A stretch of DNA of 32,000 bases from Candidatus Methylomirabilis limnetica (lineage in GTDB: Bacteria > Methylomirabilota > Methylomirabilia > Methylomirabilales > Methylomirabilaceae): positions 90,001 to 122,000 of the forward strand of contig NZ_NVQC01000009.1 of the NCBI RefSeq assembly GCF_003044035.1, given 5' to 3'. A program made the translations under genes and the position numbers. The notes under the pieces were generated by a model. That model worked only from the letters and a program-made list of their open reading frames with translations, did not search any database and was not told the DNA's origin. Below are positions 8,612 to 23,790 of this stretch, in pieces (position 1 is the first letter of the stretch; every line of letters starts with the position of its first letter).

Positions 8612-8664
8612 AAAAACAGTTTCGAGTTTCGAGTTACGAAACCCTAAATCCAAAACTTGGAACC
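8612..8664 (+). repeat. heptamer-array hairpin element A (nuoD1|nuoH1 junction), degenerate
   Basis: It starts right after the stop: AAAAACA-GTTTCGA-GTTTCGA-GTTACGA, then AACCCTAAATCCAAAAC-TTGGAAC. The outer units pair only if G-U wobble is allowed on the + strand RNA. Confidence 0.7.
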
Positions 8665-8673
8665 AGTGTAAGT

Positions 8674-9690
8674 ATGGAAGGTTTGACGGAGAGCTTCTAC
8701 AGCATTTTTGAGACCAGGGGGGTACCCTTGTTCGTCCCCCAGTTGATCGTGATGGTGATGGTGGCCACGGCCGTTCTCATTTTCGTTGCCGTCTCCGTCA
8801 TGTTCATGGTCTGGTGGGAGCGGAAGATCAGCGCCCACATCCAGGTTCGCTTTGGGCCGATGCGCGTCGGTGGCTGGCATGGCTGGGCCCAGAGTATCGC
8901 CGATGGAATCAAGCTCCTCATTAAGGAGGATATCGTTCCGGAGGGGGCTGACCGGCTTGTGTTTGCCCTGGCGCCCATGGTGGTCTTTGCGGCCGGGTTT
9001 GCCGCCTATGTCATCATCCCGTTTGGTCCGGGCCTCATCGTCAGCGATCTGAACATCGGTGTGCTCTTCTACATTTCTATCTCCTCCCTGACGGTGGTGG
9101 GAATCATCATGGCCGGCTGGAGCTCTAACAACAAGTATTCAGTCCTCGGCGCGGTCCGCTCGGCGGCGCAGGCGGTAAGCTACGAGGTCCCCCTCGTGGT
9201 CTCGATCCTTGGGGTTGTCATGACGGTCGGCTCCCTGAGTATGACCCGGATCGTAGAGGCACAGCAGGGGGTCTGGTTTGTGATCCCGCAACTGCTCGGC
9301 TTCCTCATCTTTCTGACCGCAGCCATCGCTGAATGCAACCGGCTGCCATTTGACATCCCGGAGGCTGAGTCAGAGCTGGTGGCCGGCTTTCATGTTGAGT
9401 ACAGCGGGATGCGATTTGCCATCTTCTTCCTGGCGGAATACGCCAATATGTTCACGGTGTCGGCCATCGCCACCGCGCTGTTTCTGGGCGGCTGGCATGG
9501 GCCGCTGCTGCCGGGGTGGCTTTGGTTCCTTCTGAAGACCTATTTCCTCATTTTTGTGATGATGTGGCTGCGCTGGACGCTGGCCAGGCTGCGAGTCGAT
9601 CAACTCATGTACCTGGGGTGGAAGGTCTTGCTGCCGCTGGCTTTTCTGAATATGGGGATTACCGGATTAATTCTGGTACTGCGAGGGTAG
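8674..9690 (+). CDS. nuoH: NADH-quinone oxidoreductase subunit H (operon 1)
   Basis: 338 aa, polytopic. Motifs: [41 protein letters not shown]. Confidence 0.95.
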
Positions 9691-9708
9691 TACGGTGGAG
9701 TTACGCTC

Positions 9709-10215
9709 GTGACTGTGACCCAAGTCGTATTCTTCCTCATGGCTACTTTCACCGTGGGGGCATCCCTTCTGGTGGTCCTGGCCAGAAACATCGTGCATTG
9801 CGCTATCGCATTGGTTTTTGCGTTCTTTGGCGTGGCTGCGCTGTTCATCCTGCTCGATGCCGAGTTCCTGGCAGCCACGCAGGTGCTGTTGTACGTGGGG
9901 GGCATCACCATCCTCCTACTCTTCGCCATCATGTTGACCAGCCGGATCTCGGCCAGAGGGGTGAAGATCATGAACGAGCAGGTGGGGATCAGCGCGGTGG
10001 TGGCCCTCGCTCTCTTTGGGCTCATGGTATATGCCAACCTGAAGGGTTTTCCCGCTCTGGTGCCGCCCGTGCTGGCCGAGTCAGATAATACCGCCTCGCT
10101 CGGGAGGCTCCTTCTGACCACCTATGTCCTGCCATTTGAGATCGTGTCGCTCCTCCTCCTGGCGGCCATGGTGGGCGCCATCGTCCTGGCTCGACGCGAG
10201 CAGGGGAAGGACTGA
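9709..10215 (+). CDS. nuoJ: NADH-quinone oxidoreductase subunit J (operon 1)
   Basis: 168 aa with a GTG start after GGTGGAG. Motifs: LLYVGGITILLLFAIML and the C-terminal PFEIVSLLLLAAMVGA. Confidence 0.92.
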   Translation: MTVTQVVFFLMATFTVGASLLVVLARNIVHCAIALVFAFFGVAALFILLDAEFLAATQVLLYVGGITILLLFAIMLTSRISARGVKIMNEQVGISAVVALALFGLMVYANLKGFPALVPPVLAESDNTASLGRLLLTTYVLPFEIVSLLLLAAMVGAIVLARREQGKD

Positions 10216-10218
10216 GGG

Positions 10219-10527
10219 ATGGTGCCACTTTCGTACTACCTGATCCTCAGCGCGATGCTCTTTACCATCGGGATGTTTGGAGCCCTGACGCGCCGCAATG
10301 CTATCGGGGTCCTTATGGCGCTGGAGCTTATGTTCAATGCCATCAACGTGAGCTTCGTGGCGTTTTCTCGTTATCTTCCCCAGCAGATGCTGCAGGGGCA
10401 GATCTTTGCGATCTTTGTCATTACCGTGGCGGCAGCCGAGGCCGCAGTGGGGTTAGCGATCGTCCTTGGACTGTACCGGAACTTTAAGACGATTAATGTC
10501 GATGAGATCAACCTGATGAAATGGTAG
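10219..10527 (+). CDS. nuoK: NADH-quinone oxidoreductase subunit K (operon 1)
   Basis: 102 aa with 3 TM segments. Motifs: [30 protein letters not shown]. Confidence 0.93.
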
Positions 10528-10531
10528 TTAT

Positions 10532-10683
10532 GTTCAAAACGTTCAACGTTCAAGGTTCAAGGTTCAAAGTTGCACCCCATCTTTAACGTTGCAACTCAGT
10601 ACGTAGATCTTTTACCGCGCACAACCTTGAACCTTGAACCTTGAACCTTGAACCTTGAACTTTTTGAACCTTGAACGTTGAAC
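10532..10683 (+). repeat. heptamer-array hairpin element B (nuoK1|nuoL1 junction)
   Basis: The left arm has about 6 GTTCAAG-type units (10532-10575). A spacer of about 50 nt follows. The right arm has 8 CTTGAAC-type units (10626-10683), of which 5 are perfect tandem copies (10626-10660). Confidence 0.85.
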
Positions 10684-10701
10684 GGATAAACAGGGGCTGA
10701 G

Positions 10702-12738
10702 ATGAAACTCGTTGCGCTTGTGCCACTCCTGCCACTGATCGGGTTCCTGATCAACGGGCTGTTCGGTGCCTGGATCAAGGATCGAGCCCATCTGGTGGCT
10801 ATCCCTGCCGCAGGACTGTCATGCCTTGTGGCGTTTATCGTCTTCTTTCAGACGATTGGTGGTGCGACGCTCGATTGGGACATCTATTCATGGCTGGAGG
10901 TCGGCGACCTCAAAGTGCCGATCGGGATTCTGGTCGATCCGCTCTCGACCGTTATGATGCTGGTGGTGACCTTCGTTGGACTTCTCATTCATATCTATTC
11001 GATCGGCTATATGCACGGCGATCGAAGCTTCGCTCGTTTCTTTACCTATCTCAACCTCTTCATGTTCTCCATGCTGGTGTTGGTGCTCGCCAACAACTAT
11101 CTTCTCATGTTCTTGGGGTGGGAGGGGGTTGGGCTCTGTTCATACCTGCTGATTGGCTTTTGGTATGAGAAACAATCGGCCGCGGATGCCGGAAAGAAGG
11201 CGTTCGTCGTCAATCGGATCGGCGATGCCGGCTTCATGATCGGACTCTTTTTCATCTGGAGCACCTTCGGAACGGTGAAGTACACCGAGGTGTTTGCAGC
11301 CGTCGACCCCGCTTTAGGCGCGGGGATCTACACCACCATTACGCTGCTCCTGTTCGTGGGTGCGATGGGAAAGTCGGCCCAGCTTCCGCTCTACGTCTGG
11401 CTCCCAGATGCCATGGAGGGGCCCACTCCGGTCTCGGCCCTGATCCATGCCGCCACGATGGTGACGGCAGGCGTCTATATGGTTGCCCGATCGAACCCCC
11501 TCTTTAACCTTGCGCCTTTCAGCCTCGAAGTAGTGGCCTGGGTCGGCGCGCTGACGGCGGTCTTTGCGGCCACGATTGCGCTGGTTCAGAACGACATCAA
11601 AAAGGTGGTGGCCTACTCTACCATTTCTCAGCTCGGCTATATGTTTATTGGCGCCGGTGCTGGCGCCTACGCCTCATCCGTCTTTCACCTCGCCACCCAC
11701 GCCTTTTTCAAGGCGCTCCTCTTCCTCGGCGCAGGCTCGGTCATTCATTCCCTCCATGGCGAACAGGATATCAGGAAGATGGGTGGACTGTGGAAGGCGA
11801 TGCCGATAACTGCCTGGACCTTCCTGCTGGCCTCGTTGGCGAACGCCGGGATCTTTCCCCTGGCGGGTTTCTGGTCCAAAGATGAGATTCTATTCAATGC
11901 CTATGTGCGAGGGCTGACGATCCCATGGCTCCTGGGGCTGATCGGTGCCTTCCTGACAGCCTTCTACATGTTTAGGCTGTTCTTTCAGGTCTTCACCGGG
12001 CATTTTCGCGGTGACCACCATACCGCCCATCACCTGCACGAATCGCCGCCGAACATGGCGTATCCGCTGCTGGTGCTCGGCGTCCTTTCGGTGATTGCGG
12101 GACTGGCGCTCGGATTCCCCCCGGATCATGGGCTCTATCACAAATTCGTCGCGCCGATCTTTGAGGCCGCCCACGGATCAGAGGCGGCTGTCGGGCATGG
12201 TGTCGGAGAGGCCGCCGAGCATGCGATGGAAGGGGGCACCGGGCATGCGGTGGCTGCGGCTGCCGGGCATGCGGCGGGCGCATCCGAGCTTGTTATGGCC
12301 GCGGTCTCGCTGGCGGTTGCGCTGGCCGGGATCGGCCTCGCCTATCTGTTCTACGTCAAACGGCCGGATATACCCGCGGCGCTGGCGGACAAGCTGCGCG
12401 GTCTCTACAACCTGTTACTGAACAAGTATTGGGTTGATGAGCTATACGAAGCGATCTTCATCGATTTTGGCAAGCGCTTCTGTAGATTTCTGTGGGGATT
12501 CGATTCTCGGGTCGTAGACGGCGTAGTCAACGGGAGCGGCTGGCTGACCATGCGGTTGAGCACGATTTCTGCCTGGGGCGACCTGAAGATTGTGGATGGT
12601 CTGGTCAACGCCATCGCGGATTTGATCCAAGGCGGAAGCATGACCCTCCGTCGATTGCAGACGGGAGCTATCCAAAGCTACATCCTGGCCATGGCGCTCG
12701 GCATCCTTGGCATGGTCGTGTTCTATCTGTTCGTGTAA
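10702..12738 (+). CDS. nuoL: NADH-quinone oxidoreductase subunit L (operon 1), long form with a His/Ala/Gly-rich insert
   Basis: 678 aa. Mrp-antiporter-like motifs: GWEGVGLCSYLLIGFW, GKSAQLPLYVWLPDAMEGPTPVSALIHAATMV. The C-terminus has a lateral-helix region (NKYWVDELYE). Confidence 0.95.
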   Translation: MKLVALVPLLPLIGFLINGLFGAWIKDRAHLVAIPAAGLSCLVAFIVFFQTIGGATLDWDIYSWLEVGDLKVPIGILVDPLSTVMMLVVTFVGLLIHIYSIGYMHGDRSFARFFTYLNLFMFSMLVLVLANNYLLMFLGWEGVGLCSYLLIGFWYEKQSAADAGKKAFVVNRIGDAGFMIGLFFIWSTFGTVKYTEVFAAVDPALGAGIYTTITLLLFVGAMGKSAQLPLYVWLPDAMEGPTPVSALIHAATMVTAGVYMVARSNPLFNLAPFSLEVVAWVGALTAVFAATIALVQNDIKKVVAYSTISQLGYMFIGAGAGAYASSVFHLATHAFFKALLFLGAGSVIHSLHGEQDIRKMGGLWKAMPITAWTFLLASLANAGIFPLAGFWSKDEILFNAYVRGLTIPWLLGLIGAFLTAFYMFRLFFQVFTGHFRGDHHTAHHLHESPPNMAYPLLVLGVLSVIAGLALGFPPDHGLYHKFVAPIFEAAHGSEAAVGHGVGEAAEHAMEGGTGHAVAAAAGHAAGASELVMAAVSLAVALAGIGLAYLFYVKRPDIPAALADKLRGLYNLLLNKYWVDELYEAIFIDFGKRFCRFLWGFDSRVVDGVVNGSGWLTMRLSTISAWGDLKIVDGLVNAIADLIQGGSMTLRRLQTGAIQSYILAMALGILGMVVFYLFV

Positions 12739-12743
12739 TAAAA

Positions 12744-12838
12744 GGTTTCGGGTTTCAAGTTCCGGGTTCCGAGTTGGAGATCCGCGAAAGCGGTATGGAA
12801 TCCGGAACCCGAAACCCGGAACGCGGAACCTGGAACTT
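12744..12838 (+). repeat. heptamer-array hairpin element C (nuoL1|nuoM1 junction)
   Basis: Six units (GGTTTCG GGTTTCA AGTTCCG GGTTCCG AGTTGGA GATCCGC), a GAAA loop at 12786-12789, then seven units (GCGGTAT GGAATCC GGAACCC GAAACCC GGAACGC GGAACCT GGAACTT). This gives a long imperfect stem with several G-U pairs in the + sense. Confidence 0.85.
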
Positions 12839-12861
12839 AAGATAGGAGGACTGGCATTCCC

Positions 12862-14589
12862 ATGAATGTTCTTCAGTTTCCGATACTATCCCTGATGACA
12901 TACCTGCCCCTCGTCGGGGTGTTCTTCATCTCGCTGCTCCCGAAGGAGTGCAAGGGCGGTGTCCGCTGGACTGCCCTTGCCTTCACGATAGCCGACCTTT
13001 TGGTTTCCCTGTGGATCCCTGCCTACTTCGACTCTACGACTGCGCAGATGCAGTTCGTAGAGAAGGCCTCATGGATTCCCTCCCTTGGTGTGACCTATTT
13101 CTTCGGCCTCGATGGGATCAGTCTGTGGCTCGTCTTGCTGACCACTTTCCTCTCCGTTATCGCCGTCATCTGCTCATGGGAATCGGTCAGTATGCGGCTG
13201 AAGGAGTATTACGCCTTTATCCTGATGCTGGAGACGGGAATGCTCGGAGTCTTTTTTTCCCTCGACTTCTTTCTCTTCTATATCTTTTGGGAAGTGATGC
13301 TGGTTCCAATGTACTTCCTCATCGGCATCTGGGGAAGCGACCGTCGCCTCTACTCGGCCATCAAATTCTTTCTGTATACGCTCTTCGGCGGCGTCATCAT
13401 GCTGCTGGGAATCCTGGCGGTCTACTTCTATCATGGCGCCCAGACCGGGATCTACACATTCGACATCCTGGATCTGATGAAGCTCTCGTATCCCTCAACT
13501 CCCATCTTCACGCTGCTGGGCCTTTCGTTCTCGTTCCAGGATCTGGTCTGGCTTGCATTCTTTTTGGGCTTTGCCATCAAGGTCCCGATGTTTCCCTTTC
13601 ACACGTGGCTGCCTGACGCCCACACCGATGCCCCGACAGCCGGCAGTGTCATCCTGGCCGGCGTCCTCCTGAAGATGGGGACCTACGGCTTCATCCGGAT
13701 CAATCTGCCGCTGCTCCCAGAGTCCACCCAACACTTTGTTCCGATGATCATGATCCTGTCGATCATCGCGATCATTTACGGGGCTCTGGTCTGTATGGTT
13801 CAGACCGACATGAAACGGTTGATTGCCTACAGCTCTGTCAGCCACATGGGGTTCATTGTGCTGGGTATGTTCGCCCTGAATCCCCAAGGGGTCCAGGGCA
13901 GTATCATCCAGATGGTGAACCACGGCCTTTCAACCGGCGCCCTCTTTCTCATCGTGGGCCTGATCTATGATCGCCGACATACAAGGCAGATCTCTGAGTT
14001 TGGAGGTCTGTCGAAACAGATGCCGGTCTACGCCACACTGTTCGCCATTATTATGTTTTCTTCCATGGGGCTTCCTGGACTAAACGGCTTCATCGGCGAG
14101 TTTTTGATTCTTATCGGGGCCTTCAAGGAAAATTATGTCTGGGCCGCTTTTGCTGTCACCGGGATCGTGCTCGGCGCGGCCTATATGTTGTGGCTGTACC
14201 AGCGGACCATGTTCGGGGCGCTGGATAACCCAAAGAATGCGGATCTCCCTGACCTGAGTTTCAGGGAGCTGACGACTCTCGTCCCGATCGTCGTCATGTG
14301 TTTCTGGATTGGCCTCTACCCCTCCCCGTTCCTTAGTCGGACGGAAGCGTCGGTGAATTATATCCTGGCACGGGTTCACAAACAGCAGGCCGTTACCGAG
14401 CCTACCCTGAGTAGTCCAGCCACTTCTGGTTCGACACGGCTCACCACAGGCTTCGACAGGCCTGCCATGAGCTTTGTCGAAGGGCTCAGGACGAGCGGCT
14501 GGAGCATCGAAGCTGGTCTGGAGCCCGGGAGATCTGTATTGCCGGTCCAGGGATCTGCCATGGACCACTCCGGAGGGTCTCGTGACTGA
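12862..14589 (+). CDS. nuoM: NADH-quinone oxidoreductase subunit M (operon 1) with a C-terminal tail of about 60 aa
   Basis: 575 aa. Motifs: KVPMFPFHTWLPDAHTDAPTAGSVILAGVLLKMG, and LIAYSSVSHMGF. The AGGAGG SD lies 12 nt before the ATG. Confidence 0.95.
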   Translation: MNVLQFPILSLMTYLPLVGVFFISLLPKECKGGVRWTALAFTIADLLVSLWIPAYFDSTTAQMQFVEKASWIPSLGVTYFFGLDGISLWLVLLTTFLSVIAVICSWESVSMRLKEYYAFILMLETGMLGVFFSLDFFLFYIFWEVMLVPMYFLIGIWGSDRRLYSAIKFFLYTLFGGVIMLLGILAVYFYHGAQTGIYTFDILDLMKLSYPSTPIFTLLGLSFSFQDLVWLAFFLGFAIKVPMFPFHTWLPDAHTDAPTAGSVILAGVLLKMGTYGFIRINLPLLPESTQHFVPMIMILSIIAIIYGALVCMVQTDMKRLIAYSSVSHMGFIVLGMFALNPQGVQGSIIQMVNHGLSTGALFLIVGLIYDRRHTRQISEFGGLSKQMPVYATLFAIIMFSSMGLPGLNGFIGEFLILIGAFKENYVWAAFAVTGIVLGAAYMLWLYQRTMFGALDNPKNADLPDLSFRELTTLVPIVVMCFWIGLYPSPFLSRTEASVNYILARVHKQQAVTEPTLSSPATSGSTRLTTGFDRPAMSFVEGLRTSGWSIEAGLEPGRSVLPVQGSAMDHSGGSRD

Positions 14590-16033
14590 CGCGTTCAACA
14601 TGGCAGACATCTCCACTGCCTCGCCAGAGGTGGTCATGGGCCTGGTGGCCATGGTGATCCTTATGCTCGACTTCATCGCCCCTAAAGGCGGACGAGACTG
14701 GCTGGGATATCTGAGCATCCTTGGCGTGCTTGCCACCTTCACGACCCTGATGGGCCAACGGGGGGCGACACAGCTCGCCTTCAGCGGGCAATACCTCAGC
14801 GATCCCTTCGCGTTCTTCTTCAAGATCGTATTTCTGGTCTCGGCCGCGCTCATTCTGCTCATGTCGATTGGCCACCTGAAGAGCGAAGGAATTGACAAAG
14901 GGGAGTTCTACGGGCTGATCCTCTTCGCCACACTGGGAATGATGTTGATGGTCAGTGCTGTAGACCTCCTGATTCTCTACATCGGCATGGAGACGATGTC
15001 GATTTCCATTTACATTCTCGCGGGATTCCTGAAGCGGGAGCGGCGAAGCGGCGAGGCCGCCCTGAAGTACCTGCTCATGGGAGGGTTCTCCTCTGCGATC
15101 ATGCTGTACGGCATCGTGATGCTGTATGGTCTTACCGGCACCATCGGCCTGAGAGAGATTGCCTCGACGCTGTCAGCAGACACCGCCTCGAATCCGGCGC
15201 TCATCCTGGCCATGGTGATGCTAGTGGCCGGCTTCGGGTTCAAGATCGCGGCGGTCCCCTTTCACATGTACATCCCCGACGTATATGAGGGCGCCCCTAC
15301 CCCTGTAGCGGCCCTCCTGGCGGCGGCCTCAGAGGTTGCCGGTCTCGCTATTCTCTTGCGGGTCTTTCTGGTGGCCATCCCAGGACTACAGGATCGCTGG
15401 ACGTTTCTCTTTTACACCCTATCCTTGCTCACGATGACGGTGGGAAATGTCGTGGCGATTGCGCAGAGCAATATCAAGCGGATGCTGGCCTACAGCTCCA
15501 TCGCCCACATCGGGTACCTGCTGATCGGAGTTGTGGCGGGACGGGAGCTGGGGATCTCAGCCATACTGCTGTATACCCTGATCTATGCCCTGATGACACT
15601 CGGCGTCTTTGCCATGGTTATCCTTCTCTGCGTAGGAAAGGTGAAGGGGGAACAGATCGACGACTTCACTGGCCTGGCTCAGCGAAGCCCCATGGCAGCG
15701 GCCGCCATGTTGATCTTCCTCCTCTCATTGGCTGGCGTCCCCCCGACCGCAGGCTTTGTCGGGAAGCTCTATCTCTTCGGTGCAGCCATCGAAGGAGGGT
15801 ACATCTGGCTCGCGGTGATTGCTGTCATCAATTCAGCCATCTCGGTGTTCTATTACATGAAGGTGGTGGTGGCGATGTACATGCGAGATCTTCCGCCACA
15901 GGGCCTTACCTTGAGTTCTTCCCGGCCTCTGCGGGTCGCGCTATTTGTGACCCTGGCAGGAACCATCGCTATCGGGATCTACCCAGGTCCCTTCCTGGAG
16001 CTGGCTAGGGCCTCGGTCGCCGGACTCTGGTAA
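14582..16033 (+). CDS. nuoN: NADH-quinone oxidoreductase subunit N (operon 1)
   Basis: Motifs: KIAAVPFHMYIPDVYEGAPTPVAA, KRMLAYSSIAHIGY. The proposed start is GTG 14582 (GGAGGG SD at 14571-14576; it overlaps the nuoM stop). ATG 14600 is an alternative. The ORF-track start at 14474 lies inside the nuoM tail. Confidence 0.9.
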   Translation: MTDAFNMADISTASPEVVMGLVAMVILMLDFIAPKGGRDWLGYLSILGVLATFTTLMGQRGATQLAFSGQYLSDPFAFFFKIVFLVSAALILLMSIGHLKSEGIDKGEFYGLILFATLGMMLMVSAVDLLILYIGMETMSISIYILAGFLKRERRSGEAALKYLLMGGFSSAIMLYGIVMLYGLTGTIGLREIASTLSADTASNPALILAMVMLVAGFGFKIAAVPFHMYIPDVYEGAPTPVAALLAAASEVAGLAILLRVFLVAIPGLQDRWTFLFYTLSLLTMTVGNVVAIAQSNIKRMLAYSSIAHIGYLLIGVVAGRELGISAILLYTLIYALMTLGVFAMVILLCVGKVKGEQIDDFTGLAQRSPMAAAAMLIFLLSLAGVPPTAGFVGKLYLFGAAIEGGYIWLAVIAVINSAISVFYYMKVVVAMYMRDLPPQGLTLSSSRPLRVALFVTLAGTIAIGIYPGPFLELARASVAGLW

Positions 16034-16170
16034 AAGACAGTTTCGAGTTGCGAGTTTCGCGTTTGGAGTTGAAAAACAGGTTCCAGGTATCAGGTTGCGT
16101 GTTCCAGTACGTTGAGGACTCTTTGGAGTTTGGGTAACCCGAAACTCAAAACTCGAAACGCGAAACCCGG
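16034..16170 (+). repeat. heptamer-array element D (after nuoN1, end of operon 1)
   Basis: AAAGACA-GTTTCGA-GTTGCGA-GTTTCGC-GTTTGGA-GTTGAAA, then a core of about 60 nt that is also roughly 7-nt periodic (TTCCAGG TATCAGG TTGCGTG TTCCAGT), then CCGAAAC-TCAAAAC-TCGAAAC-GCGAAAC (16139-16166). Confidence 0.8.
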
Positions 16171-16182
16171 TTTGCGCGAGCC

Positions 16183-16211
16183 TTGACAGAGCGGAGGGAG
16201 AGGGCTAGAGT
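16183..16211 (+). promoter_or_regulatory. sigma70-like promoter candidate for atpZ-atpB-atpE (and probably nuo operon 2)
   Basis: TTGACA (16183-16188), 17-nt spacer, TAGAGT (16206-16211). Confidence 0.5.
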
Positions 16212-16232
16212 GAGGCCGAACGCGGCAAGAGA

Positions 16233-16277
16233 AAATCCCCCCAGCCCCCTTTGGTAAAGGAGGGCCAAGGGAGATTT
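16233..16277. repeat. ~46-bp two-segment palindromic element, copy 1 (atpZ 5' UTR)
   Basis: AAATCCCCCC-AG-CCCCCTTT-ggt-AAAGGAGGG-CC-AAGGGAGATTT. It has the same architecture as the copies at 23344-23389 and 27209-27254. Confidence 0.7.
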
Positions 16278-16290
16278 CATCAGCGGGACG

Positions 16291-16506: not shown

Positions 16507-16554
16507 TTTGTTGAGGTTCATATGTGATTTCCCGCAGAATAACGGGGAGGCGTG

Positions 16555-17274
16555 ATGGAGCACCATCCTACATTTATCCAGATTCCTAATTTTCTGGGGG
16601 CGTTAGGGATTCCTGGGGACTGGGTTCCGGAGCAGGTAGCGATGGCCTGGGTTGTGATGGCTATCCTGATCGGCGTTTCGTATCTGGCCACGAGGCGACT
16701 CGATGCTGTGCCCGGGCCGATACAGAACCTCATGGAGGTGGTCGTAGAGACGTTCCTGGACCTGCTCACGCAGATGATCGGGCCCAAGGGGAAACGGTAT
16801 CTTCCCTTGATCGGCACGGCCGGCCTCTTCATTCTCGTTGGGAATCTCCTTGGAACCGTCCCCGGTTTCAAGCCTCCAACGGCGAATCTTAACACCACTG
16901 CGGCCCTGGCCATCACCGTCTTTCTCTCCTATAACTACTTTGGTATACGGGAGCATGGGATCATTGCCTATCTGCGCCACTTCTGTGGCCCGATCCTGTG
17001 GCTGGCCCCCATCATGTTCCCTATCGAGCTTATCGGTCACCTCGCCCGGCCGATCTCCCTGTCGATCCGGTTGTTCGGTAATATCTTCGGCGAGGAGAGT
17101 GTAGTCGCTATCCTGCTGTCGTTGATCTGGTTGGGTATTCCGTATGTCATCTATCTGGGCATCATGATGCCCCTGAGTCTCTTTACCAGCATCGTTCAGA
17201 GCTTCGTCTTTGTGATGCTGTCCATGGTGTATATCGCGGGAGCAGTTCAAACAGAGCACGAGGAGCACCACTAA
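16555..17274 (+). CDS. atpB: F0F1 ATP synthase subunit a
   Basis: About 239 aa. It has the essential Arg motif LSIRLFGNIFGEE and 5-6 TM segments. ATG 16555 follows GGGGAGG; GTG 16552 is an alternative. Confidence 0.93.
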   Translation: MEHHPTFIQIPNFLGALGIPGDWVPEQVAMAWVVMAILIGVSYLATRRLDAVPGPIQNLMEVVVETFLDLLTQMIGPKGKRYLPLIGTAGLFILVGNLLGTVPGFKPPTANLNTTAALAITVFLSYNYFGIREHGIIAYLRHFCGPILWLAPIMFPIELIGHLARPISLSIRLFGNIFGEESVVAILLSLIWLGIPYVIYLGIMMPLSLFTSIVQSFVFVMLSMVYIAGAVQTEHEEHH

Positions 17275-17305
17275 CCCCATCTTTATTCTGAAAGGAGTCG
17301 TGTCG

Positions 17306-17668
17306 ATGAGTCGCACACAAGGAGCGCGTGTTCTACTGTTGGTGATGGTTCTGATTGCCTTTGGATCCCAGGTCGCGTTTGCCGCTGAAGGGGCCAAGCC
17401 TGAGTCCTCAACCTTTTTTGTCGTCTCGGTCTTGACGGGGGGATTCGCCATGGCCATCGCTTCAGGCGCGGCGGCAATCGGCCAGAGTCGGGCAATTGCC
17501 AGCGCAATGGAGGCGATCGGGAGGCAGCCGGCAGCGGCTCCGCAGATCCAGGTCGCAATGATTATCGGTCTCGCGCTCATCGAGTCGCTGGCCATCTATG
17601 TCTTGCTCGTTGCCCTGATCATTTTCTTCGCGAATCCCTTCATCAAGTACATCGTTCCAGGCGCATAG
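17306..17668 (+). CDS. atpE: F0F1 ATP synthase subunit c with an N-terminal signal-peptide-like extension
   Basis: It has a helical hairpin with an RQP loop and the carboxylate motif GLALIESLAIY, and a C-terminal FANPF. ATG 17306 lies 8 nt after GGAG. The first ~28 aa (ARVLLLVMVLIAFGSQVAFA|AEG) look like a cleavable signal peptide. Confidence 0.9.
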   Translation: MSRTQGARVLLLVMVLIAFGSQVAFAAEGAKPESSTFFVVSVLTGGFAMAIASGAAAIGQSRAIASAMEAIGRQPAAAPQIQVAMIIGLALIESLAIYVLLVALIIFFANPFIKYIVPGA

Positions 17669-17698
17669 AGGAGGGTAAAACTTCGGGGCGATGACCGA

Positions 17699-18076
17699 TT
17701 GCCCAGGATAGACGCAGTGCTCTTCTCGTATCTGCCGATCTTTATCCTGATCCTTCTGGTCGCCGGTTTTGCCCTCGCTACCCTCTTTGTGTCTCACGCA
17801 CTCGGGCCGCGGCGGCCGACTCAGGCGAAGCTCGCCCCGTACGAGTGCGGAATCGACCCGGTAGGCTCCGCCAGGGAGCGGTTCTCGGTCAAGTTTTACC
17901 TGGTCGCGATGTTGTTCATCATCTTCGACATCGAGATCGTTTTCCTATATCCCTGGGCGGTGATCCTGAGCAGTCTGAGACTATTCGGGTTGATCGAGAT
18001 GATTGTCTTTCTCGGCATCCTCCTGATCGGCCTCCTGTATGTCTGGAGGAGGGGGGGGCTGGAATGGACAACGTGA
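17699..18076 (+). CDS. nuoA: NADH-quinone oxidoreductase subunit A (operon 2)
   Basis: Motifs: [27 protein letters not shown]. The start is uncertain (TTG 17699 or GTG 17717). Only 30 nt separate it from the atpE stop. Confidence 0.9.
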
Positions 18077-18570
18077 AGGGGCCGGAGAAGAACCGCACCG
18101 TTTCAGAGCTGCGGGAAAGATTCCCGGAGGCGACCCTCTCAGCCAGAAGCTTTCGCAACGAAACGACCCTCCTCGTCAGGCCTGGCGACATCATTCGTAT
18201 CTGTCGCCACCTGAAAGAGGAACCCGGCCTTCTGTACGATTTCCTCTCTGATCTGACTGCGGTCGATCGGCTCGGGGACCACCCACGGTTCGAGGTGGTC
18301 TACCATCTCTATTCCCTTCAGTACAAGTGGCGAATCCGGTTGAAGGTACCGGTTGAAGAGGGTGAGGCGGTACCCAGTGTGACCGCTGTCTGGAGCGCCG
18401 CCAATTGGCACGAACGTGAAGTATTCGATATGTTCGGCATCGGCTTCGATGGGCACCCGGATCTCCGGCGAATACTTATGCCGGAGGATTGGGAGGGATT
18501 CCCGCTCCGAAAGGACTACCCGGTGCAGGCCTCGCCGAAATGGTGGGAAGAGGGGACGACAGGTGACTGA
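18064..18570 (+). CDS. nuoC: NADH-quinone oxidoreductase subunit C (operon 2)
   Basis: ATG 18064 overlaps the nuoA2 3' end by 13 nt. 168 aa with [26 protein letters not shown]. Confidence 0.92.
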
Positions 18571-19735
18571 GCGGCGCACCATGACCATTAACATGGGGCC
18601 TCAGCACCCCAGCACCCACGGCGTGCTGCGTCTGGTCCTGGAGCTGGATGGGGAGATCGTGGTCCGGTGCGCTCCGCATATCGGGTACCTGCACACCGGG
18701 ATGGAGAAGATCGCGGAAAGCAAGCGGTACCAGCAGGTCATCCCCATTACGGATCGGATGGATTACCTGGCCCCCCTCAGCAACAACCTGGCCTATGTGT
18801 TGGCTGTCGAGAAGCTCCTTGACATCGATGTGCCTCAGCGGGCGAAGGTGATCCGCGTCATGCTGACGGAGCTGACCCGGATCGGAAGCCACTTGGTCTG
18901 GCTTGCGACACATGCTATCGATATCGGGGCCATGAGCGTCTTCCTCTATGCTTTTCGGGAGCGTGAGGCGATCCTGGACATGTCCGAACAGGTGTCCGGG
19001 GCCAGGATGATGTCCAGCTACTTCCGGATTGGCGGCCTGTTTGCCGACCTGCCAGAGGGGTTCGAGAGGGTGGTCCACTCTTTCGTCGAAAGCTTTCCTA
19101 CCCGCCTGGCCGAGTACGAAGACCTGCTGACGAGGAACCCGATCTGGATCGAACGGACCAAGGGGGTCGGTGTGATCAAGCCGGAAGATGCCATAGACCT
19201 TGGCTTAAGCGGTCCAAGCCTCCGAGCCTGCGGAATCCCTTGGGACATTCGTAAGGCTAATCCCTATTCTGGCTATGAGCAATTTCACTTCGAGATGTCC
19301 AGGGGAATCCACGGCGATGTCTACGACCGATACCTCTGCCGAATCTTTGAGATGCGGCAGAGTGTGGCTATCGTTCGCCAGGCCCTGGAATGCCTCCCAG
19401 AGGGGCCGATTGCTGTAGCCAATCCGAAGCTCACCCCGCCGCCCAAGCCGATGGTCAAGCAGAGTATGGAGGCTCTCATTCACCACTTCCTGCTCTGGTC
19501 GGCAGGGTTTACCGTACCGGCAGGAGAGGTATATCAGAGTATCGAGTCACCGAGGGGCGAGTACGGCGTCTATCTGGTAAGCGACGGCAGCAACAAACCC
19601 TATCGCGTCCATTTTCGTGCGCCCTCCTTCGTGAACCTGGAGTCGTTATCGAAGATGGTGGAGGGGCGACTGGTGGCAGATCTGGTGGCGATCATCGGTA
19701 GCATCGATATCGTACTCGGCGAGGTGGATCGCTAG
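18563..19735 (+). CDS. nuoD: NADH-quinone oxidoreductase subunit D (operon 2)
   Basis: GTG 18563 overlaps the nuoC2 stop; ATG 18581 is an alternative. Motifs: [36 protein letters not shown]. Confidence 0.95.
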
Positions 19736-19741
19736 TGTGGA

Positions 19742-19818
19742 GTTTCGAGTTTCGGGTTTGGAATTTCTGGTTGTGGCGAGCCTTGTTGACTCGAAACTCG
19801 AAACCCGAAACTCGAAAC
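19742..19818 (+). repeat. heptamer-array hairpin element E (nuoD2|nuoE2 junction)
   Basis: GTTTCGA GTTTCGG GTTTGGA ATTTCTG GTTGTGG, a 14-nt loop region, then TCGAAAC TCGAAAC CCGAAAC TCGAAAC. Confidence 0.85.
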
Positions 19819-19829
19819 CTTTACATACG

Positions 19830-20330
19830 ATGACGGAAGAGACGATTCAGCGCATCCTGTCCAGATATCCCGATCGTCGCTCCGCTCTGTTGCCGCTGAT
19901 GCACCTGTGCCAGGAGGAGGCAGGGTATCTTACAGAGGAGGCCATGCGTGGTCTGGCCGCCCGTCTTGACTTGCCGCCGACCCAGGTGGCAGAGGTCGCG
20001 ATGTTTTATGACATGTTCCGTCTGAAGTCGGGCGGTCGGCGTGAGATCTGGGTCTGCCACAACCTGAGCTGCGCGCTCTTAGGGGCCGAACGGGTGATCC
20101 GACGCCTTGAAGAGGCGCTTGGGGTCAGCACTGGAGAGACGACACCCGATGGACTGTTCACGATCAAACGGGTTGAGTGCCTTGCTGCCTGCGGACTCGC
20201 ACCGGCGATCCAGGTGGGGCCGGATTACTACGGTCCGGTTTCGCACGGTGATGTTGAGACACTGGTTGCACGGCTGCGAGAGCAATTAGCCGGCAGCGAT
20301 CAACGGGCGGCTTCATGCGATCGGTTGTAG
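19830..20330 (+). CDS. nuoE: NADH-quinone oxidoreductase subunit E (24 kDa, [2Fe-2S] N1a)
   Basis: 166 aa from ATG 19830. Cys ligands are VCHNLSC (Cx4C) and ECLAAC (Cx3C). The ORF-track start at 19737 reads through repeat element E. Confidence 0.92.
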   Translation: MTEETIQRILSRYPDRRSALLPLMHLCQEEAGYLTEEAMRGLAARLDLPPTQVAEVAMFYDMFRLKSGGRREIWVCHNLSCALLGAERVIRRLEEALGVSTGETTPDGLFTIKRVECLAACGLAPAIQVGPDYYGPVSHGDVETLVARLREQLAGSDQRAASCDRL

Positions 20331-20380
20331 GGGCAGGGTTTACCCTGCCCAAGGAGGGCGCAGCAAGCAGCGCCCCTACA
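20327..20380 (+). repeat. REP-like two-hairpin element, copy 1 (nuoE2|nuoF2 junction)
   Basis: The outer stem TGTAGGGG...CCCCTACA encloses GGGCAGGG-ttta-CCCTGCCC and GGGCGC-agcaagca-GCGCCC. Confidence 0.8.
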
Positions 20381-20400
20381 CCGCTGATGGCTGAACGTTC

Positions 20401-21708
20401 ATGAGCGAAAAGATCCTTACGAAGCGGTTTGAGATCCCTGGGTATCGCGGGACCCTTGATGAGTACGAGGCTACCGGAGGGTATCAGGCCATTGCGAAAG
20501 CGCTCAAAGAGCATACGCCAGCCAGTCTAACCGAGATGGTGAAGCGGTCGGGGCTCAGGGGGCGTGGGGGGGCAGGCTTCCCCACCGGCGTCAAGTGGGG
20601 CTTTATTCCCAAGGATCCGGAGCTGCCCAAGTATCTCGTCTGTAATGCCGATGAGAGCGAGCCGGGGACGTTCAAGGACCGTGAGCTGATCATGCGCGAC
20701 CCGCACCAGCTCATCGAAGGGATCCTGCTGGCAAGTTTCGCCATCGGGTGTCGGACCGCCTATATCTATATCAGGGGCGAGTTCATTGCAGGGGCGTGTA
20801 TCCTCGAACAGGCGATCAGAGATGCGGCCGCCCGTGGTCTCGCGGGAAAGGATATCCTGGGGAGCAGCTTCAGTCTGGACCTCCACGTGCATCGAGGCGC
20901 CGGCGCCTACATCTGTGGAGAGGAGACCGCCCTGCTGGAATCATTAGAGGGTAAAAGGGGGTTGCCACGGTTGAAGCCCCCGTTTCCTGCCACGTCGGGG
21001 CTCTATCGCAAGCCCACCGTCGTGAATAATGTCGAAACTCTCAGCAATCTTCCGCATATCGTACTGCGTGGAGCCGAGTGGTTCTCGAGCATTGGAAGCC
21101 CCAAGAGTACGGGTACCAGGGTCTTCTCGATAAGTGGCCATGTTCGCCGGCCCGGTATCTACGAGTGCCCGATCAATGTCTCAATGAGAGAGTTGATTTT
21201 CGAGCATGCGGACGGGATGCGGGATGGTCGCCGCCTGAAGGCGGTGATTCCCGGAGGCTCCTCGGTGCCGGTTCTGACCGAGCAGCACCTGGATACCCGG
21301 ATGGACTTCGAATCTCTTGCCACGGTGGGCTCCATGGCCGGGTCTGGAGGCGTCATCGTGATGGATGAGACCACCTGCATGGTCCGGGTGGGCGAGGTCG
21401 TCTCTCGATTCTATCATCACGAATCGTGCGGGCAGTGCACGCAGTGCCGGGAGGGGACGGCGTGGTTACACAAGACACTGAGAAGGATCGAAGATGGTCG
21501 CGGACGAAAGGCGGATCTTGACCTCCTCCTGGACATCTGTGACAACATGAAGAGCAAAACCATTTGCCCCTTAAGCGATGCTGCCGCTATGCCGATTGAA
21601 AGCTACCTGAAGTACTTTCGTGATGAATTCGAGCGCCACATCGTGGATCGCGCCTGCCCGTTCGAAGCCCAGGTCGGGGCCTCGGCCAGGCCCATGGACG
21701 CGTCGTAG
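20401..21708 (+). CDS. nuoF: NADH-quinone oxidoreductase subunit F (51 kDa, FMN/NADH site, N3)
   Basis: 435 aa. Motifs: GLRGRGGAGFPTGVKW, and ESCGQCTQCREG...ICPL for the [4Fe-4S] ligands. Confidence 0.95.
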   Translation: MSEKILTKRFEIPGYRGTLDEYEATGGYQAIAKALKEHTPASLTEMVKRSGLRGRGGAGFPTGVKWGFIPKDPELPKYLVCNADESEPGTFKDRELIMRDPHQLIEGILLASFAIGCRTAYIYIRGEFIAGACILEQAIRDAAARGLAGKDILGSSFSLDLHVHRGAGAYICGEETALLESLEGKRGLPRLKPPFPATSGLYRKPTVVNNVETLSNLPHIVLRGAEWFSSIGSPKSTGTRVFSISGHVRRPGIYECPINVSMRELIFEHADGMRDGRRLKAVIPGGSSVPVLTEQHLDTRMDFESLATVGSMAGSGGVIVMDETTCMVRVGEVVSRFYHHESCGQCTQCREGTAWLHKTLRRIEDGRGRKADLDLLLDICDNMKSKTICPLSDAAAMPIESYLKYFRDEFERHIVDRACPFEAQVGASARPMDAS

Positions 21709-21712
21709 CCTG

Positions 21713-21735
21713 TCCCCGCATGCATGAAGCGGGGA
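21713..21735. repeat. short palindromic element TCCCCGC-N9-GCGGGGA (copy 2 of 2)
   Basis: It lies in the 43-nt nuoF2|nuoH2 gap. It is the same stem as 3599-3616, in the opposite orientation. Confidence 0.6.
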
Positions 21736-21751
21736 GCGGGCGGTAGGGGGC

Positions 21752-22741
21752 ATGATGCCAGAGGGCACCTTCCTCGTCCTCATGGTAGCGAAGATCGCCG
21801 TGGTCTTCGGTCTGATGTTGCTAAGTGTCGCCTACATGACCTGGCTGGAGCGCAAGATCCTCAGCGATATCCAGGTCCGACTCGGTCCGATGCGGGTCGG
21901 CCCCCACGGCCTGCTACAGCCGATCGCCGACGGGCTCAAGCTCTTGTTCAAGGAGGAGATCGTTCCCCAGGCCGCTGACCGGACACTCTACCTCCTGGCT
22001 CCCGTGCTTGCGCTGGTCCCTGCCTTCATCTCCTTTGCCGTAATCCCTTTCGGAGACCGGATCCGACTCTTCGGGCAGAGCATCGACCTGGTCATCGCTG
22101 ACGTCAATATCGGGCTGCTGTATGTGTTCGGTGTCGCCTCTCTCGGGATCTATGGGATCGTCCTGGGAGGGTGGGCCTCGAACAACAAGTACGCGCTGCT
22201 TGGGGGGCTGCGTGCCTCGGCCCAGATGATCAGCTATGAACTCTCCCTGAGTCTGTCGGTGGTGGGCGTGGTGATGCTGTCGCAATCGCTGAGCCTGGTG
22301 CAGATTGTGGATGCCCAGGCCAGGGTGTGGTTTATCGTCCTTCAGCCGATCGGTTTTATCATCTTCCTGATCTGTGCTGTCGCCGAGATCAATCGCGCTC
22401 CTTTCGATCTCCCGGAGGCCGAGACGGAACTGGTGGCCGGTTTTCACGTCGAGTACAGCTCAATGAAGTTCGCCATGTACTTTATGGCTGAGTATGCCAA
22501 CATGATCACCGTATCGGCCATGGCGACAACGCTGTTCCTGGGCGGGTGGAGGGGGCCGTGGTTGCCACCGGTGGTCTGGTTTCTCATTAAGCTCTATCTG
22601 TTTATTTTCCTCTTCATCTGGCTTCGAGGTACGCTGCCGCGCTTTAGATACGACCAACTGATGCGATTTGGGTGGAAGGTTCTGCTGCCCATTGCGCTGG
22701 TCAATATTATGGTCACGGCTGTGTTTGTTGCGTTGAGGTAA
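21752..22741 (+). CDS. nuoH: NADH-quinone oxidoreductase subunit H (operon 2)
   Basis: 329 aa. Motifs: [41 protein letters not shown]. Confidence 0.95.
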
Positions 22742-22743
22742 GA

Positions 22744-23250
22744 ATGGAATGGCTGGTGTTCGTTCCGCTGGCCGCAATGGCGCTCATCACTGCGGTTCTG
22801 GTCATCGTCATGCGAAATCCGGTCTACTGCGCCCTCTCGCTTATTGGGACGTTCTTCGCACTGTCGGGGATCTATCTGCTGTTGCAGGCGCAGTTCATCG
22901 CTGTCGTGCAGGTGATCGTCTATGCCGGAGCGATCATGGTCCTGTTCCTGTTCGTGGTCATGCTGCTCGACCTGGGTCATGAACTACCCGCCTGGCTGCA
23001 GCGAGATCGGCCCAGGCTCCTGCTCGGCATCGGTGTGGCTCTGCTCCTACTTGTTGAGTTGGCGATCCCTATCGGCTTCAGGACTCCTCACGGTCCCCAG
23101 GGCCTCTACACTTCAGAACTCGTGGGCGCCATCGGAAATACTCAAGTCGTCGGCCGTCTCCTGTTCACCGATTTTCTCATCCCATTTGAGATCACTTCTA
23201 TAATCCTGCTCATTGCCATTATTGGCGTCATGGTCTTAGCCAGGAGGTAG
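22744..23250 (+). CDS. nuoJ: NADH-quinone oxidoreductase subunit J (operon 2)
   Basis: ATG 22744 lies 2 nt after the nuoH2 stop. 168 aa with VIVYAGAIMVLFLFVVMLL and PFEITSIILLIAIIGV. Confidence 0.92.
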   Translation: MEWLVFVPLAAMALITAVLVIVMRNPVYCALSLIGTFFALSGIYLLLQAQFIAVVQVIVYAGAIMVLFLFVVMLLDLGHELPAWLQRDRPRLLLGIGVALLLLVELAIPIGFRTPHGPQGLYTSELVGAIGNTQVVGRLLFTDFLIPFEITSIILLIAIIGVMVLARR

Positions 23251-23343
23251 CGAAGTGCGGAATGTAGGGGCAGCCCTTGTGGCTGCCCGAGGTGCAACGT
23301 TCAACGTTCAAGGGTGGAGTGTGCGAGGTGCGAGGTGCAAGGC
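23251..23343 (+). repeat. composite repeat region F (nuoJ2|nuoK2): partial REP hairpin plus heptamer units
   Basis: TGTAGGGGCAGCC-cttgt-GGCTGCCC (23263-23288), then GTTCAAC GTTCAAG, then GTGCGAG GTGCGAG GTGCAAG. Confidence 0.7.
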
Positions 23344-23389
23344 AAATCCTCTCTCACCCCCCTTTATCAAAGGGGGGTTGGGGGGATTT
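23344..23389. repeat. ~46-bp two-segment palindromic element, copy 2
   Basis: AAATCC-TCTC-tca-CCCCCCTTT-atc-AAAGGGGGG-tt-GGGG-GGATTT. Confidence 0.75.
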
Positions 23390-23409
23390 GATGCGAGGCC
23401 TGAAGTGCG

Positions 23410-23721
23410 ATGACAGCAACCGTGCCTTTGAGCGCATACTTAATACTTAGCGCTGTCCTCTTTGTCATAGGGGTCATCGGGGTGCTGATCCGGCGTAATG
23501 TGCTGGTGATCTTCATGGCGATTGAGTTGATGCTGAATGCCGTCAATCTCACCTTTGTGGCCTTCTCAAGGTTTCTCCACTCGATGGATGGACAGATCAT
23601 TGTGTTGTTTGTGATGGCGGTGGCCGCAGCCGAGGTAGCAGTAGGGCTGGCCATCATCATTGCACTGCATAGAAATAAAGAGTCCTTAAATGTGGACGAG
23701 ATCAATCTCCTTAAAGGCTAG
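23410..23721 (+). CDS. nuoK: NADH-quinone oxidoreductase subunit K (operon 2)
   Basis: 103 aa. Motifs: [30 protein letters not shown]. Confidence 0.93.
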
Positions 23722-23788
23722 TTGCGAGTTTCGAGCGTCGGGTTTTGAGCTTACAACCCGAAACCCGAAACTCGTAACCCGAAACCCG
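23721..23788 (+). repeat. heptamer-array hairpin element G (nuoK2|nuoL2 junction)
   Basis: GTTGCGA GTTTCGA GCGTCGG GTTTTGA, then gcttacaa, then CCGAAAC CCGAAAC TCGTAAC CCGAAAC. It abuts both the stop (23719-23721) and the start (23791). Confidence 0.85.
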
Positions 23789-23790
23789 AT

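Follow-up and report, generated by a model that had tools for sequence, protein, structure and literature searches.

The stretch of DNA analysed here, called the window, comprises 32,000 nucleotides of Candidatus Methylomirabilis limnetica (contig NZ_NVQC01000009.1, positions 90,001 to 122,000 of the forward strand) and is numbered from its first letter. The host belongs to Candidatus Methylomirabilis (NC10), and the NuoE protein of the window is 87% identical to that of M. oxyfera. Two paralogous nuo operons occupy positions 6629-28751 on either side of a trio of atpZ-like, atpB and atpE genes, and this two-operon arrangement is conserved throughout the Methylomirabilis lineage. No Pfam match to nuoB, nuoG or nuoI was found among the called genes of either operon, and nuoE and nuoF were also absent among those of the first. 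The junctions between the genes contain seven elements, A to G. With these letters inserted the gene order is nuoA-C-D, A, nuoH-J-K, B, nuoL, C, nuoM-N, D, atpZ-like, atpB, atpE, nuoA-C-D, E, nuoE-F-H-J, F, nuoK, G, nuoL-M-N-rex (suffixes 1 and 2 below mark the two operons). All seven elements are intergenic and flanked by Pfam-confirmed genes. In their full form (B, C, D, E and G) they are palindromic heptanucleotide simple-sequence repeats, i.e., one 7-nt unit laid out as two opposed tandem arrays. The window sequence was identical in independent ENA, NCBI and Logan assemblies, so that the repeats are not an assembly artefact. Public contigs L003-L010 all terminate within element B (window 10528-10652); with so many ends at one place, the repeat evidently breaks short-read assemblies.

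Tandem Repeats Finder detected period-7 arrays of 2.4-8.4 copies at the elements (Table 1) and none elsewhere in the window. None was present in the contig 6.3 kb upstream or 7.4 kb downstream of it either, the census of the source contig covering 45.8 kb rebuilt from L214, the window and L215. The pattern GTTTCGNGTTTCG, with at most one mismatch allowed, gave 20 matches compared to 0.12 expected from shuffled sequences, and all 20 were placed within elements A, C, D, E and G. Inverted repeats were distributed in the same manner, with 17 of the 22 in the window falling in B, C, D, E or G. The arrays are real and non-random.

Elements B, C, D, E and G share one build. A 5' array rich in G and T, made of GTTCAAS (B), GTTTCGG/GTTCCGG (C) or GTTTCGR (D, E and G) units, is followed by a non-repetitive centre of 0-65 nt and by a complementary 3' array. 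The arms are 77-93% complementary across 24-40 nt, with predicted stems of 24-40 bp and 88-93% complementarity in B, D and E, and of 29-31 nt and 77-79% in C and G. From the upstream stop codon to the 5' arm there are 0-7 nt, and 2-23 nt separate the end of the 3' arm from the next start. Element B begins 4 nt after the nuoK1 stop and ends 18 nt ahead of the nuoL1 ATG at 10702; its inverted repeat spans 40 nt at 93% complementarity, and since the 3' arm contains more units than the 5' arm, 2-3 units are left unpaired or able to shift the register. In element C a Shine-Dalgarno sequence, GGAGGA, lies downstream of the stem and outside it, while elements E and G have no Shine-Dalgarno sequence. 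The centre of D, 65 nt long, contains degenerate GTTCCAG units. Element E ends 11 nt ahead of the nuoE ATG (19830). The 5' arm of G overlaps the last base of the stop codon, and its 3' arm ends 2 nt ahead of the nuoL2 ATG at 23791.

The preliminary description of this DNA, made from the letters alone, had counted seven inverted heptamer arrays. Five of them stand as such; A is minimal and F is a composite of another kind. In A three units, GTTTCGA GTTTCGA GTTACGA (8619-8639), meet a single inverted unit, CGAAAC (8636-8641, as GTTTCG-AGTTA-CGAAAC), and the outer pairing to 8653-8663 is weak and depends on two G-U pairs. The fold is likewise weak (z -2.1 sense, -1.6 antisense). Element A was identical in six strains, and the orthologous junction in the related locus L131 is without it. 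The CAACGTT and GTGCGAG arrays of element F are direct and mutually non-complementary, and the element folds no better than shuffled sequences (z = +0.3).

Table 1. Features of the nuo/atp block in window coordinates; period-7 arrays are those reported by Tandem Repeats Finder.
Feature	Location	Positions	Strand	Period-7 arrays	Description
Element A	nuoD1/nuoH1	8612..8664	+	8618-8639	minimal: about 2.5 units plus one inverted unit
Element B, 5' arm	nuoK1/nuoL1	10532..10572	+	10538-10571	about 5 GTTCAAS units
Element B, centre	nuoK1/nuoL1	10573..10621	+		non-repetitive spacer, about 50 nt
Element B, 3' arm	nuoK1/nuoL1	10622..10684	+	10623-10683	about 8.4 STTGAAC units
Element C	nuoL1/nuoM1	12744..12838	+	12745-12775/12797-12836	inverted heptamer arrays, z -5; 5' arm 12744-12775 (GTTTCGG/GTTCCGG), apical hairpin CCGC-GAAA-GCGG 12782-12793, 3' arm 12797-12838 (CCGGAAC/CCGAAAC)
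Element D	nuoN1/atp genes, after nuoN1 stop	16034..16170	+	16039-16070/16136-16169	inverted heptamer arrays; 5' arm 16039-16070 (GTTTCGA/GTTGCGA), 3' arm 16136-16170 (TCGAAAC)
Promoter-like site, sigma-70-like	directly after element D, upstream of atp genes	16183..16211	+		TTGACA-17-TAGAGT
Nested palindrome, second copy	atp-gene leader	16233-16278			conserved
Element E	nuoD2/nuoE	19740..19818	+	19740-19772/19789-19818	inverted heptamer arrays, z -7.3 to -7.7; 5' arm 19740-19772 (GTTTCGR x4), 16-nt loop, 3' arm 19789-19818 (YCGAAAC x4.3)
GTAG-tagged hairpin	nuoE/nuoF spacer	20327-20350			G+C-rich
GTAG-tagged hairpin	nuoE/nuoF spacer	20355-20379			G+C-rich
Element F	nuoJ2/nuoK2	23251..23343	+	23295-23311; 23321-23342	composite, not an inverted heptamer array; CAACGTT x2.4 at 23295-23311, GTGCGAG x3.1 at 23321-23342
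GTAG-tagged hairpin	within element F	23265-23288			G+C-rich
Nested palindrome, 45 nt	interrupts element F GTGCGAG array	23345..23389	+		AAATCC..CCCCCCTTTATCAAAGGGGGG..GGATTT
Element G	nuoK2/nuoL2	23721..23789	+	23755-23789	inverted heptamer arrays, z -4.6 to -5.8; 5' arm 23721-23749 (GTTGCGA GTTTCGA ...), 3' arm 23750-23789 (ACCCGAA x5)

The repeats also mislead gene callers, which produce false small open reading frames (ORFs) and N-terminal extensions. Automatic gene calls overrun the repeats at 19737-19829 of the window, at 3070-3189 and 13446-13586 of L211 and at 13277-13378 of L212, and spurious ORFs of 33-46 aa were called within the junction elements. NuoE was called as a protein of 197 aa from a GTG within element E, while its homologs measure 152-171 aa; these lengths back the ATG at 19830.

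When folded and compared to shuffled sequences, B, C, E and G reached z-scores of about -5 to -8.7, and D about -2 to -3. The preliminary description had noted G-U pairs in the arms and argued from them for selection on a sense-strand RNA structure. The G-U pairs are indeed present in A and C. The selection was rejected by the folding energies. Minimum free energies on the sense and antisense strands, in kcal/mol, were -55.5 and -65.2 for B, -48.8 and -43.6 for C, -43.4 and -39.5 for D, -39.2 and -39.5 for E, and -30.0 and -32.3 for G, so that the antisense strand is the more stable one in B and G, and E is equal on both. Among 46 elements between co-directional genes elsewhere, the sense strand was stabler in 25 and less stable in 21 (Wilcoxon p=0.55). 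With sense and antisense equally stable, the pairing as such carries no signal specific to one strand. Other RNA classes were considered as well. A terminator scan found no terminator-like site or T run at any element, and an intrinsic (Rho-independent) terminator, i.e., a G+C stem followed by a T run, was therefore rejected. Rfam returned no match at the gathering threshold, and at E values up to 1 only generic-hairpin microRNA precursor models appeared, all sub-threshold (E 0.28-0.74) and judged to be chance. A CRISPR array, in which repeats of 23-50 nt alternate with unique spacers of like length, was already dismissed in the preliminary description and is rejected here on the same grounds of a 7-nt head-to-tail unit and no spacers.

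Nine loci of the Methylomirabilis lineage were compared junction by junction, namely the window, L131, L211-L213 and L216-L219. At junction E (nuoD2/nuoE) hairpins with z-scores of -5 to -7 were built from GTTTCGR in the window, GTTCCAG (10 and 9 copies) in L131, GGGTGTG in L211 and GGGTATA in L213. In L212 a GTTTYGA 5' arm is present and its partner is replaced by a 45-nt palindrome, which stands alone at this junction in L216. L217 has a small AGCTATC/AGCTGAC hairpin and L219 an unrelated spacer; in L218 there is no spacer and the stop and start codons overlap. Junction B (nuoK1/nuoL1) is filled by a GTTCAAS hairpin in the window and likewise in L212 and L217. L211 and L213 have one C/A-rich array each, (CACTCAA)5 and (AACCCCC)4 respectively, and in L131, L216 and L218 the spacer measures only 5-7 nt. 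The L131 ortholog of junction C is built of GTTCCAR units. Junction D has other units in L131, L212 and L213 and is without the element in L211 and L216-L219. Arrays are found at the nuoM2/nuoN2 junction of L211-L213 and not at that of the window. In L213 (GCA_027493695.1) nuoL, M, N, C and D are each split into several short ORFs, probably by frameshift errors of long reads, which makes junction lengths less reliable there.

There were two immediate observations from this comparison. Firstly, the two arms change jointly between species, which indicates that the pairing is maintained. The second observation was that no particular element is conserved at orthologous junctions and that their occupants turn over rapidly. 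Change is visible also over a short distance. In L002, a strain 98.5% identical to the window, the 3' arm of element B is shorter by one 7-nt unit, and the element has several substitutions besides, between flanks identical to those of the window; this is a single close-relative comparison, to be set beside the invariance of element A in its six strains. The comparison leads us to regard the junctions as hot spots, or safe havens, of small palindromes.

The layout was also surveyed in other genomes. The detector used arrays of period 7, 14 or 21 from Tandem Repeats Finder, placed no more than 160 nt apart and joined by at least 12 predicted inter-array pairs. In about 1.9 Mb of fetched sequence from many phyla (L011-L210 and the window) it yielded a non-redundant set of 95 inverted heptamer pairs. 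Gene contexts were assigned by a crude longest-ORF rule that left 39 of the 95 pairs without a context; the other 56 comprised 46 between co-directional genes, five between convergent and five between divergent ones. For the 46 co-directional elements the median distance was 7 nt from the stop codon to the 5' arm and 15 nt from the 3' arm to the start. The operon-internal position adjoining stop and start, pointed out in the preliminary description, is supported by these distances. The supposed restriction to the nuo operons did not hold, since the pairs occur in many contexts and phyla and a Methylomirabilis metagenome-assembled genome (MAG), L056, has a GTTTCGG hairpin ahead of a hemA-like gene (labelled so from a reading of the sequence). 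A generally longer 3' arm was considered and rejected, since of the 46 elements 24 have the longer arm on the 3' side and 20 on the 5' side, which is not significant.

The string (GTTTCGN)3 was found at no fewer than 120 loci in species-representative genomes. The matches listed included Acidobacteriota, Planctomycetota, Bacteroidota, Verrucomicrobiota, Cyanobacteria, Chloroflexota, Desulfobacterota and Gammaproteobacteria as well as a Methylomirabilis MAG, and about a fifth of the loci among them had a complementary array just downstream. Eighty metagenomic nuoL loci picked irrespective of repeats showed nuo junctions of unrelated bacteria filled by inverted heptamer pairs of entirely different units, for instance ATTGACG/AATCGTC, CAAATGA/ATTTGTC, GGTAAAG/TTTACCC, AGTCGAG/GACTCTC and GGGAACA/CCCTGTT. 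In 934 kb not selected for repeats, inverted array pairs were predominantly of period 7, with 12 pairs and four more at period 14, against three at period 8, four at period 9 and 0-1 at the remaining periods. The inverted-pair architecture is common and independent of the unit sequence.

The pairs have a handedness. In 75 of the 95 pairs the 5' arm contains more G than the 3' arm, a chirality that is strand-symmetric, and the 5' arm has the higher keto (G+T) content in 72 pairs against 23 (p=5e-7). Unpaired arrays at co-directional junctions are arranged in a related manner: G/T-rich ones adjoin the upstream stop in 11 of 12 cases and C/A-rich ones the downstream start in 21 of 31 (Fisher p=6e-4 against the G/T-rich). 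On the sense strand 43 of 58 unpaired arrays are C/A-rich, or 21 against 10 when counted by locus (p=0.07). Such a polarity suggests filtering, or possibly a function, at the level of the mRNA, but it is a lead and not a result, since some of the arrays scored as unpaired may be halves of degenerate pairs and the gene calls are crude.

Other features lie beside the heptamer arrays. The promoter-like site directly after element D (Table 1) has both hexamers conserved in L131, L211, L212, L213, L216, L217 and L219, while L218 has retained TTGACA and has TTAGAG instead of CTAGAG as the second hexamer. Judging from this site, transcription of the atp genes and the second nuo operon probably begins anew at 16183-16211, and the first nuo transcript would then have element D at its 3' end. 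A nested palindrome of about 45 nt, of the form AAATCC..CCCCCTTT-NNN-AAAGGGGG..GGATTT, is dispersed among these genomes, with copies at junction D of L211, L212, L213, L216 and L217, at junction E of L212 and L216, and at junction F of L212, L216 and L217. One copy is conserved in the leader of the atp genes, and others are inserted in heptamer arrays, where they replace or split an arm. The G+C-rich hairpins with a GTAG tag, GTAGGGGCAGGGTTTACCCTGCCC and in inverted orientation GGGCGCAGCAAGCAGCGCCCCTAC, look like classical GTAG-type repetitive extragenic palindromic (REP) sequences in a pair resembling a REPIN (REP doublet forming a hairpin), and their motif was also found in L056, L213, L216 and L218. 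The GTGCGAG units and the GTAGGGGC hairpins of element F recur in L056, L212, L213 and L217. In addition, a CGTC-tagged element resembling a REP or a MITE (a miniature transposable element with inverted repeats), CGTCATTCCCGCGAAAGCGGGAATCCAG ... CCGGAATGACG, is nested within heptamer hairpins of L212 (13684-13863) and L213 (C, D and G), and the apical CCGCGAAAGCGG hairpin of element C may be a remnant of it.

Among known repeats, the cyanobacterial short tandemly repeated repetitive (STRR) sequences are heptamers as well, reportedly described by Mazel et al. in 1990, and Elhai et al. are said to have found small dispersed repeats inside such arrays in 2008, a parallel to the nested palindromes seen here. 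STRR arrays also lie within operons, e.g., between pecE and pecF. The likeness to STRR and to REP-type repeats, put forward in the preliminary description, was borne out as a likeness. REP, bacterial interspersed mosaic elements (BIME) and REPIN are small extragenic palindromes mostly at co-directional or convergent junctions, downstream of coding regions and plausibly transcribed (Di Nocera 2013, PMC3733652; Bertels and Rainey 2011, PMC3116915), and in all this they resemble the heptamer hairpins. However, REPs are imperfect palindromes of 20-40 bp that follow one consensus throughout a genome, bear an unpaired GTAG or CGTC tag and have a link to REP-associated tyrosine transposases, while the heptamer hairpins have neither tag nor consensus and a periodic stem. 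Identity with REP/BIME was therefore rejected for the heptamer hairpins, which have no tag and share nothing beyond the unit; genuine GTAG- and CGTC-tagged elements stand beside or within them. By analogy, the heptamer hairpins would most likely work like the RNA hairpins of REP and BIME.

The closest match in layout comes from Xanthomonas, where 70-75 convergent pairs of GGGAATC heptamer arrays per genome may form stem-loops (Rehm 2015, PMC4692102). Array length varies between Xanthomonas species while the single or inverted type is kept (PMC4692102). Like these, B, C, D, E and G consist of two opposed, nearby intergenic arrays with the G-rich one first, and the convergent orientation in Xanthomonas agrees with the chirality measured here. 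Unlike these, the window units have no GGG tract, the host belongs to NC10, and the junctions are filled from stop to start within operons. Without GGG in GTTTCGR, GTTCAAS and GTTCCGG no G-quadruplex is expected, although the GGGTGTG units of L211 and GGGTATA units of L213 do contain such a tract. The architecture is thus already described, though unnamed and unexplained, and it was not, as the preliminary description had it, a new one; new here are the phylum (NC10) and the units. A literature search for the exact GTTTCGR unit strings returned unrelated eukaryotic matches only and no bacterial context.

According to Mrazek (2007), as cited in PMC4679880, heptanucleotides are the commonest long simple-sequence repeats (LSSRs) of prokaryotes, and polymerase slippage has been proposed as their origin. 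In a survey of 7,006 genomes with SPADE, tandem heptamers outnumbered all other intergenic repeats, and for their function there was "no clear clue" (preprint 10.1101/309039). The elements share with intergenic heptanucleotide LSSRs the 7-nt tandem units, the non-coding position, the spread over many phyla and the quick change in length; here we found tandem units above chance, non-coding sites and a one-unit length polymorphism. LSSR surveys cover single direct arrays, and the paired palindromic layout falls outside their definition. Another heptamer family, TAACTGA in Beggiatoaceae, lies directly upstream of starts without ribosome-binding sites (MacGregor 2015, PMC4679880). With these may be compared, in the window, the C/A-rich 3' arms of E and G, and in L211 and L213 the single arrays at junction B. 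Unlike the window pairs, TAACTGA arrays run almost exclusively in direct orientation (169 direct sets, one indirect) and one unit serves the whole genome (PMC4679880). The nearest experimental precedent is the (ATCTTTC)n array in the 5' untranslated region (UTR) of hmw1A in H. influenzae, which forms a long hairpin cleaved by RNase III (Rapun-Araiz 2025, PMC12721329). Changes in its repeat number need both the hairpin and transcription (PMC12721329). There, too, a transcribed heptamer array makes up one arm of a long RNA hairpin; the right arm, unlike in the window, is a G-rich non-repeat, and the site is the 5'-UTR of a phase-variable adhesin and not intercistronic.

We favour the explanation that the elements are heptamer palindromes born by slippage, tolerated in operons by folding back on themselves and turned over fast, with mRNA stem-loops as a side effect, and give it a probability of about 55%. 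The arrays would gain or lose 7-nt steps through replication slippage, and the arms would stay complementary through intrastrand template switching, through selection against spacers that do not fold, or through the two together. Survival in operon junctions would follow from a self-folding spacer being harmless to the operon. The base of the hairpin would draw the upstream stop and the downstream start region together. From established RNA biology, the transcribed stems, 20-40 bp long and nearly perfect, should act as REP-type intercistronic stem-loops that would block 3' exonucleases and serve as RNase III substrates, and the stems of E and G would occlude the nuoE and nuoL2 start regions until they are opened.

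Three findings weigh against this explanation. Every array in the 45.8 kb of contig is confined to a 15-kb nuo/atp block despite many other spacers. The junctions of one NC10 genome use similar units, which purely local slippage does not predict: GTTTCGR is found at window A, D, E and G, GTTCCAR at C, D and E of L131, and GGGTATR at three junctions of L213, while the same junction differs between NC10 genomes and other phyla have their own unit at each junction. Thirdly, the unpaired arrays are polar relative to gene direction. These unit dialects and the polarity are not fully explained by slippage and tolerance, and they keep a coupling device, conversion or mobility, and a trans-acting factor alive as alternatives.

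The first of these, a selected mRNA device, is unlikely but has the most to commend it. The hairpins would set the ratios of complex I subunits, with 7-nt steps for tuning, either by mRNA segmentation, through RNase III or RNase E sites and exonuclease barriers, or by stop-start coupling. Pairing preserved while units change between species, the placement a median 7 nt past the stop and about 15 nt ahead of the start, the absence of a Shine-Dalgarno sequence in E and G with the stem within 2-11 nt of the ATG, the polarity of unpaired arrays (11/12 and 21/31), the dense occupation of the nuo block and the RNase III precedent in H. influenzae all agree with such a role. Against it, sister species with the same operons have these junctions empty, with overlapping codons at junction E (L218) and practically no spacer at junction B (L131, L216 and L218). 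Further points against it are unrelated palindromes occupying these junctions in other genomes, the lack of a folding advantage on the sense strand, and copy numbers varying between near-identical strains.

It is distinctly less probable that the elements are non-autonomous mobile elements, of MITE or REP/REPIN type, copied by a transposase in trans. Mobility would explain why one dialect is common to the junctions of a genome while the same junction differs between genomes, and why junctions are filled or empty among relatives; true GTAG- and CGTC-tagged REP-like elements are moreover found in the same junctions (PMC3733652). Some elements of L211 and L213 also share A-rich and T-rich ends, AAAAG(A/C)CAG ... 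CTG..CTTTT, but the AAAAGMCAG motif occurs at only a few elements and was rejected as evidence of mobility. Against mobility, no full-length copy is conserved, every element differs in arm length and centre, and comparison of an empty site (L131 B: TAGAAGCTATG) with filled ones showed no target-site duplication. With no such duplication, differing centres and no near-identical copies, the elements do not have the make-up of MITEs. Outside this phylum (L145, L194) every junction shows a different, unrelated unit, which favours a local origin.

Still less probable is an action at the DNA level, a cruciform or single-strand hairpin affecting replication, supercoiling or recombination with the transcript irrelevant. 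The equivalence of sense and antisense folds, the strand-symmetric chirality and the pairs between convergent and divergent genes (5 + 5 of 56) fit this. Central spacers of 16-65 nt, as seen here, would disfavour cruciform extrusion on grounds of established DNA biophysics; the polarity of unpaired arrays relative to genes and the tight placement at stop and start codons also speak against it. Finally, an array of many sites for an oligomeric protein that binds RNA or DNA sequence-specifically, one unit per subunit, has the regular 7-nt spacing, the genome-specific dialect, the many (GTTTCGN)3 loci and the proposal of S1, Csp and CsrA as binders of TAACTGA repeats (MacGregor 2015, PMC4679880) in its favour, but is highly improbable given that units differ within one operon set (GTTCAAS at B, GTTTCGR at E) and are entirely unrelated in other genomes, that half of every unit is locked in duplex, and that the genes nearby encode no candidate protein. 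Both the variety of units and the lack of conserved ends or target duplications disfavour MITEs and sequence-specific binding alike.

The slippage explanation leaves the cell with stem-loops as by-products. That inverted heptamer arrays are, as a whole, a general, polar, operon-internal RNA device is doubtful, but would have consequences. A G/U-rich arm would then sit at the stop and a C/A-rich arm at the start, with the two codons joined by the fold, so that translational coupling or re-initiation would persist even as the spacer between them expands. The C-rich arm would be hidden from Rho as soon as it is made, and 7-nt slippage would provide a heritable rheostat for NuoL or NuoE stoichiometry. 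Two paralogous 10-gene operons with five to seven array-filled junctions, and sister junctions that vary, constitute a natural experiment in Methylomirabilis, and the chirality together with the polarity of unpaired arrays could make the question of heptamer function testable with reporters.

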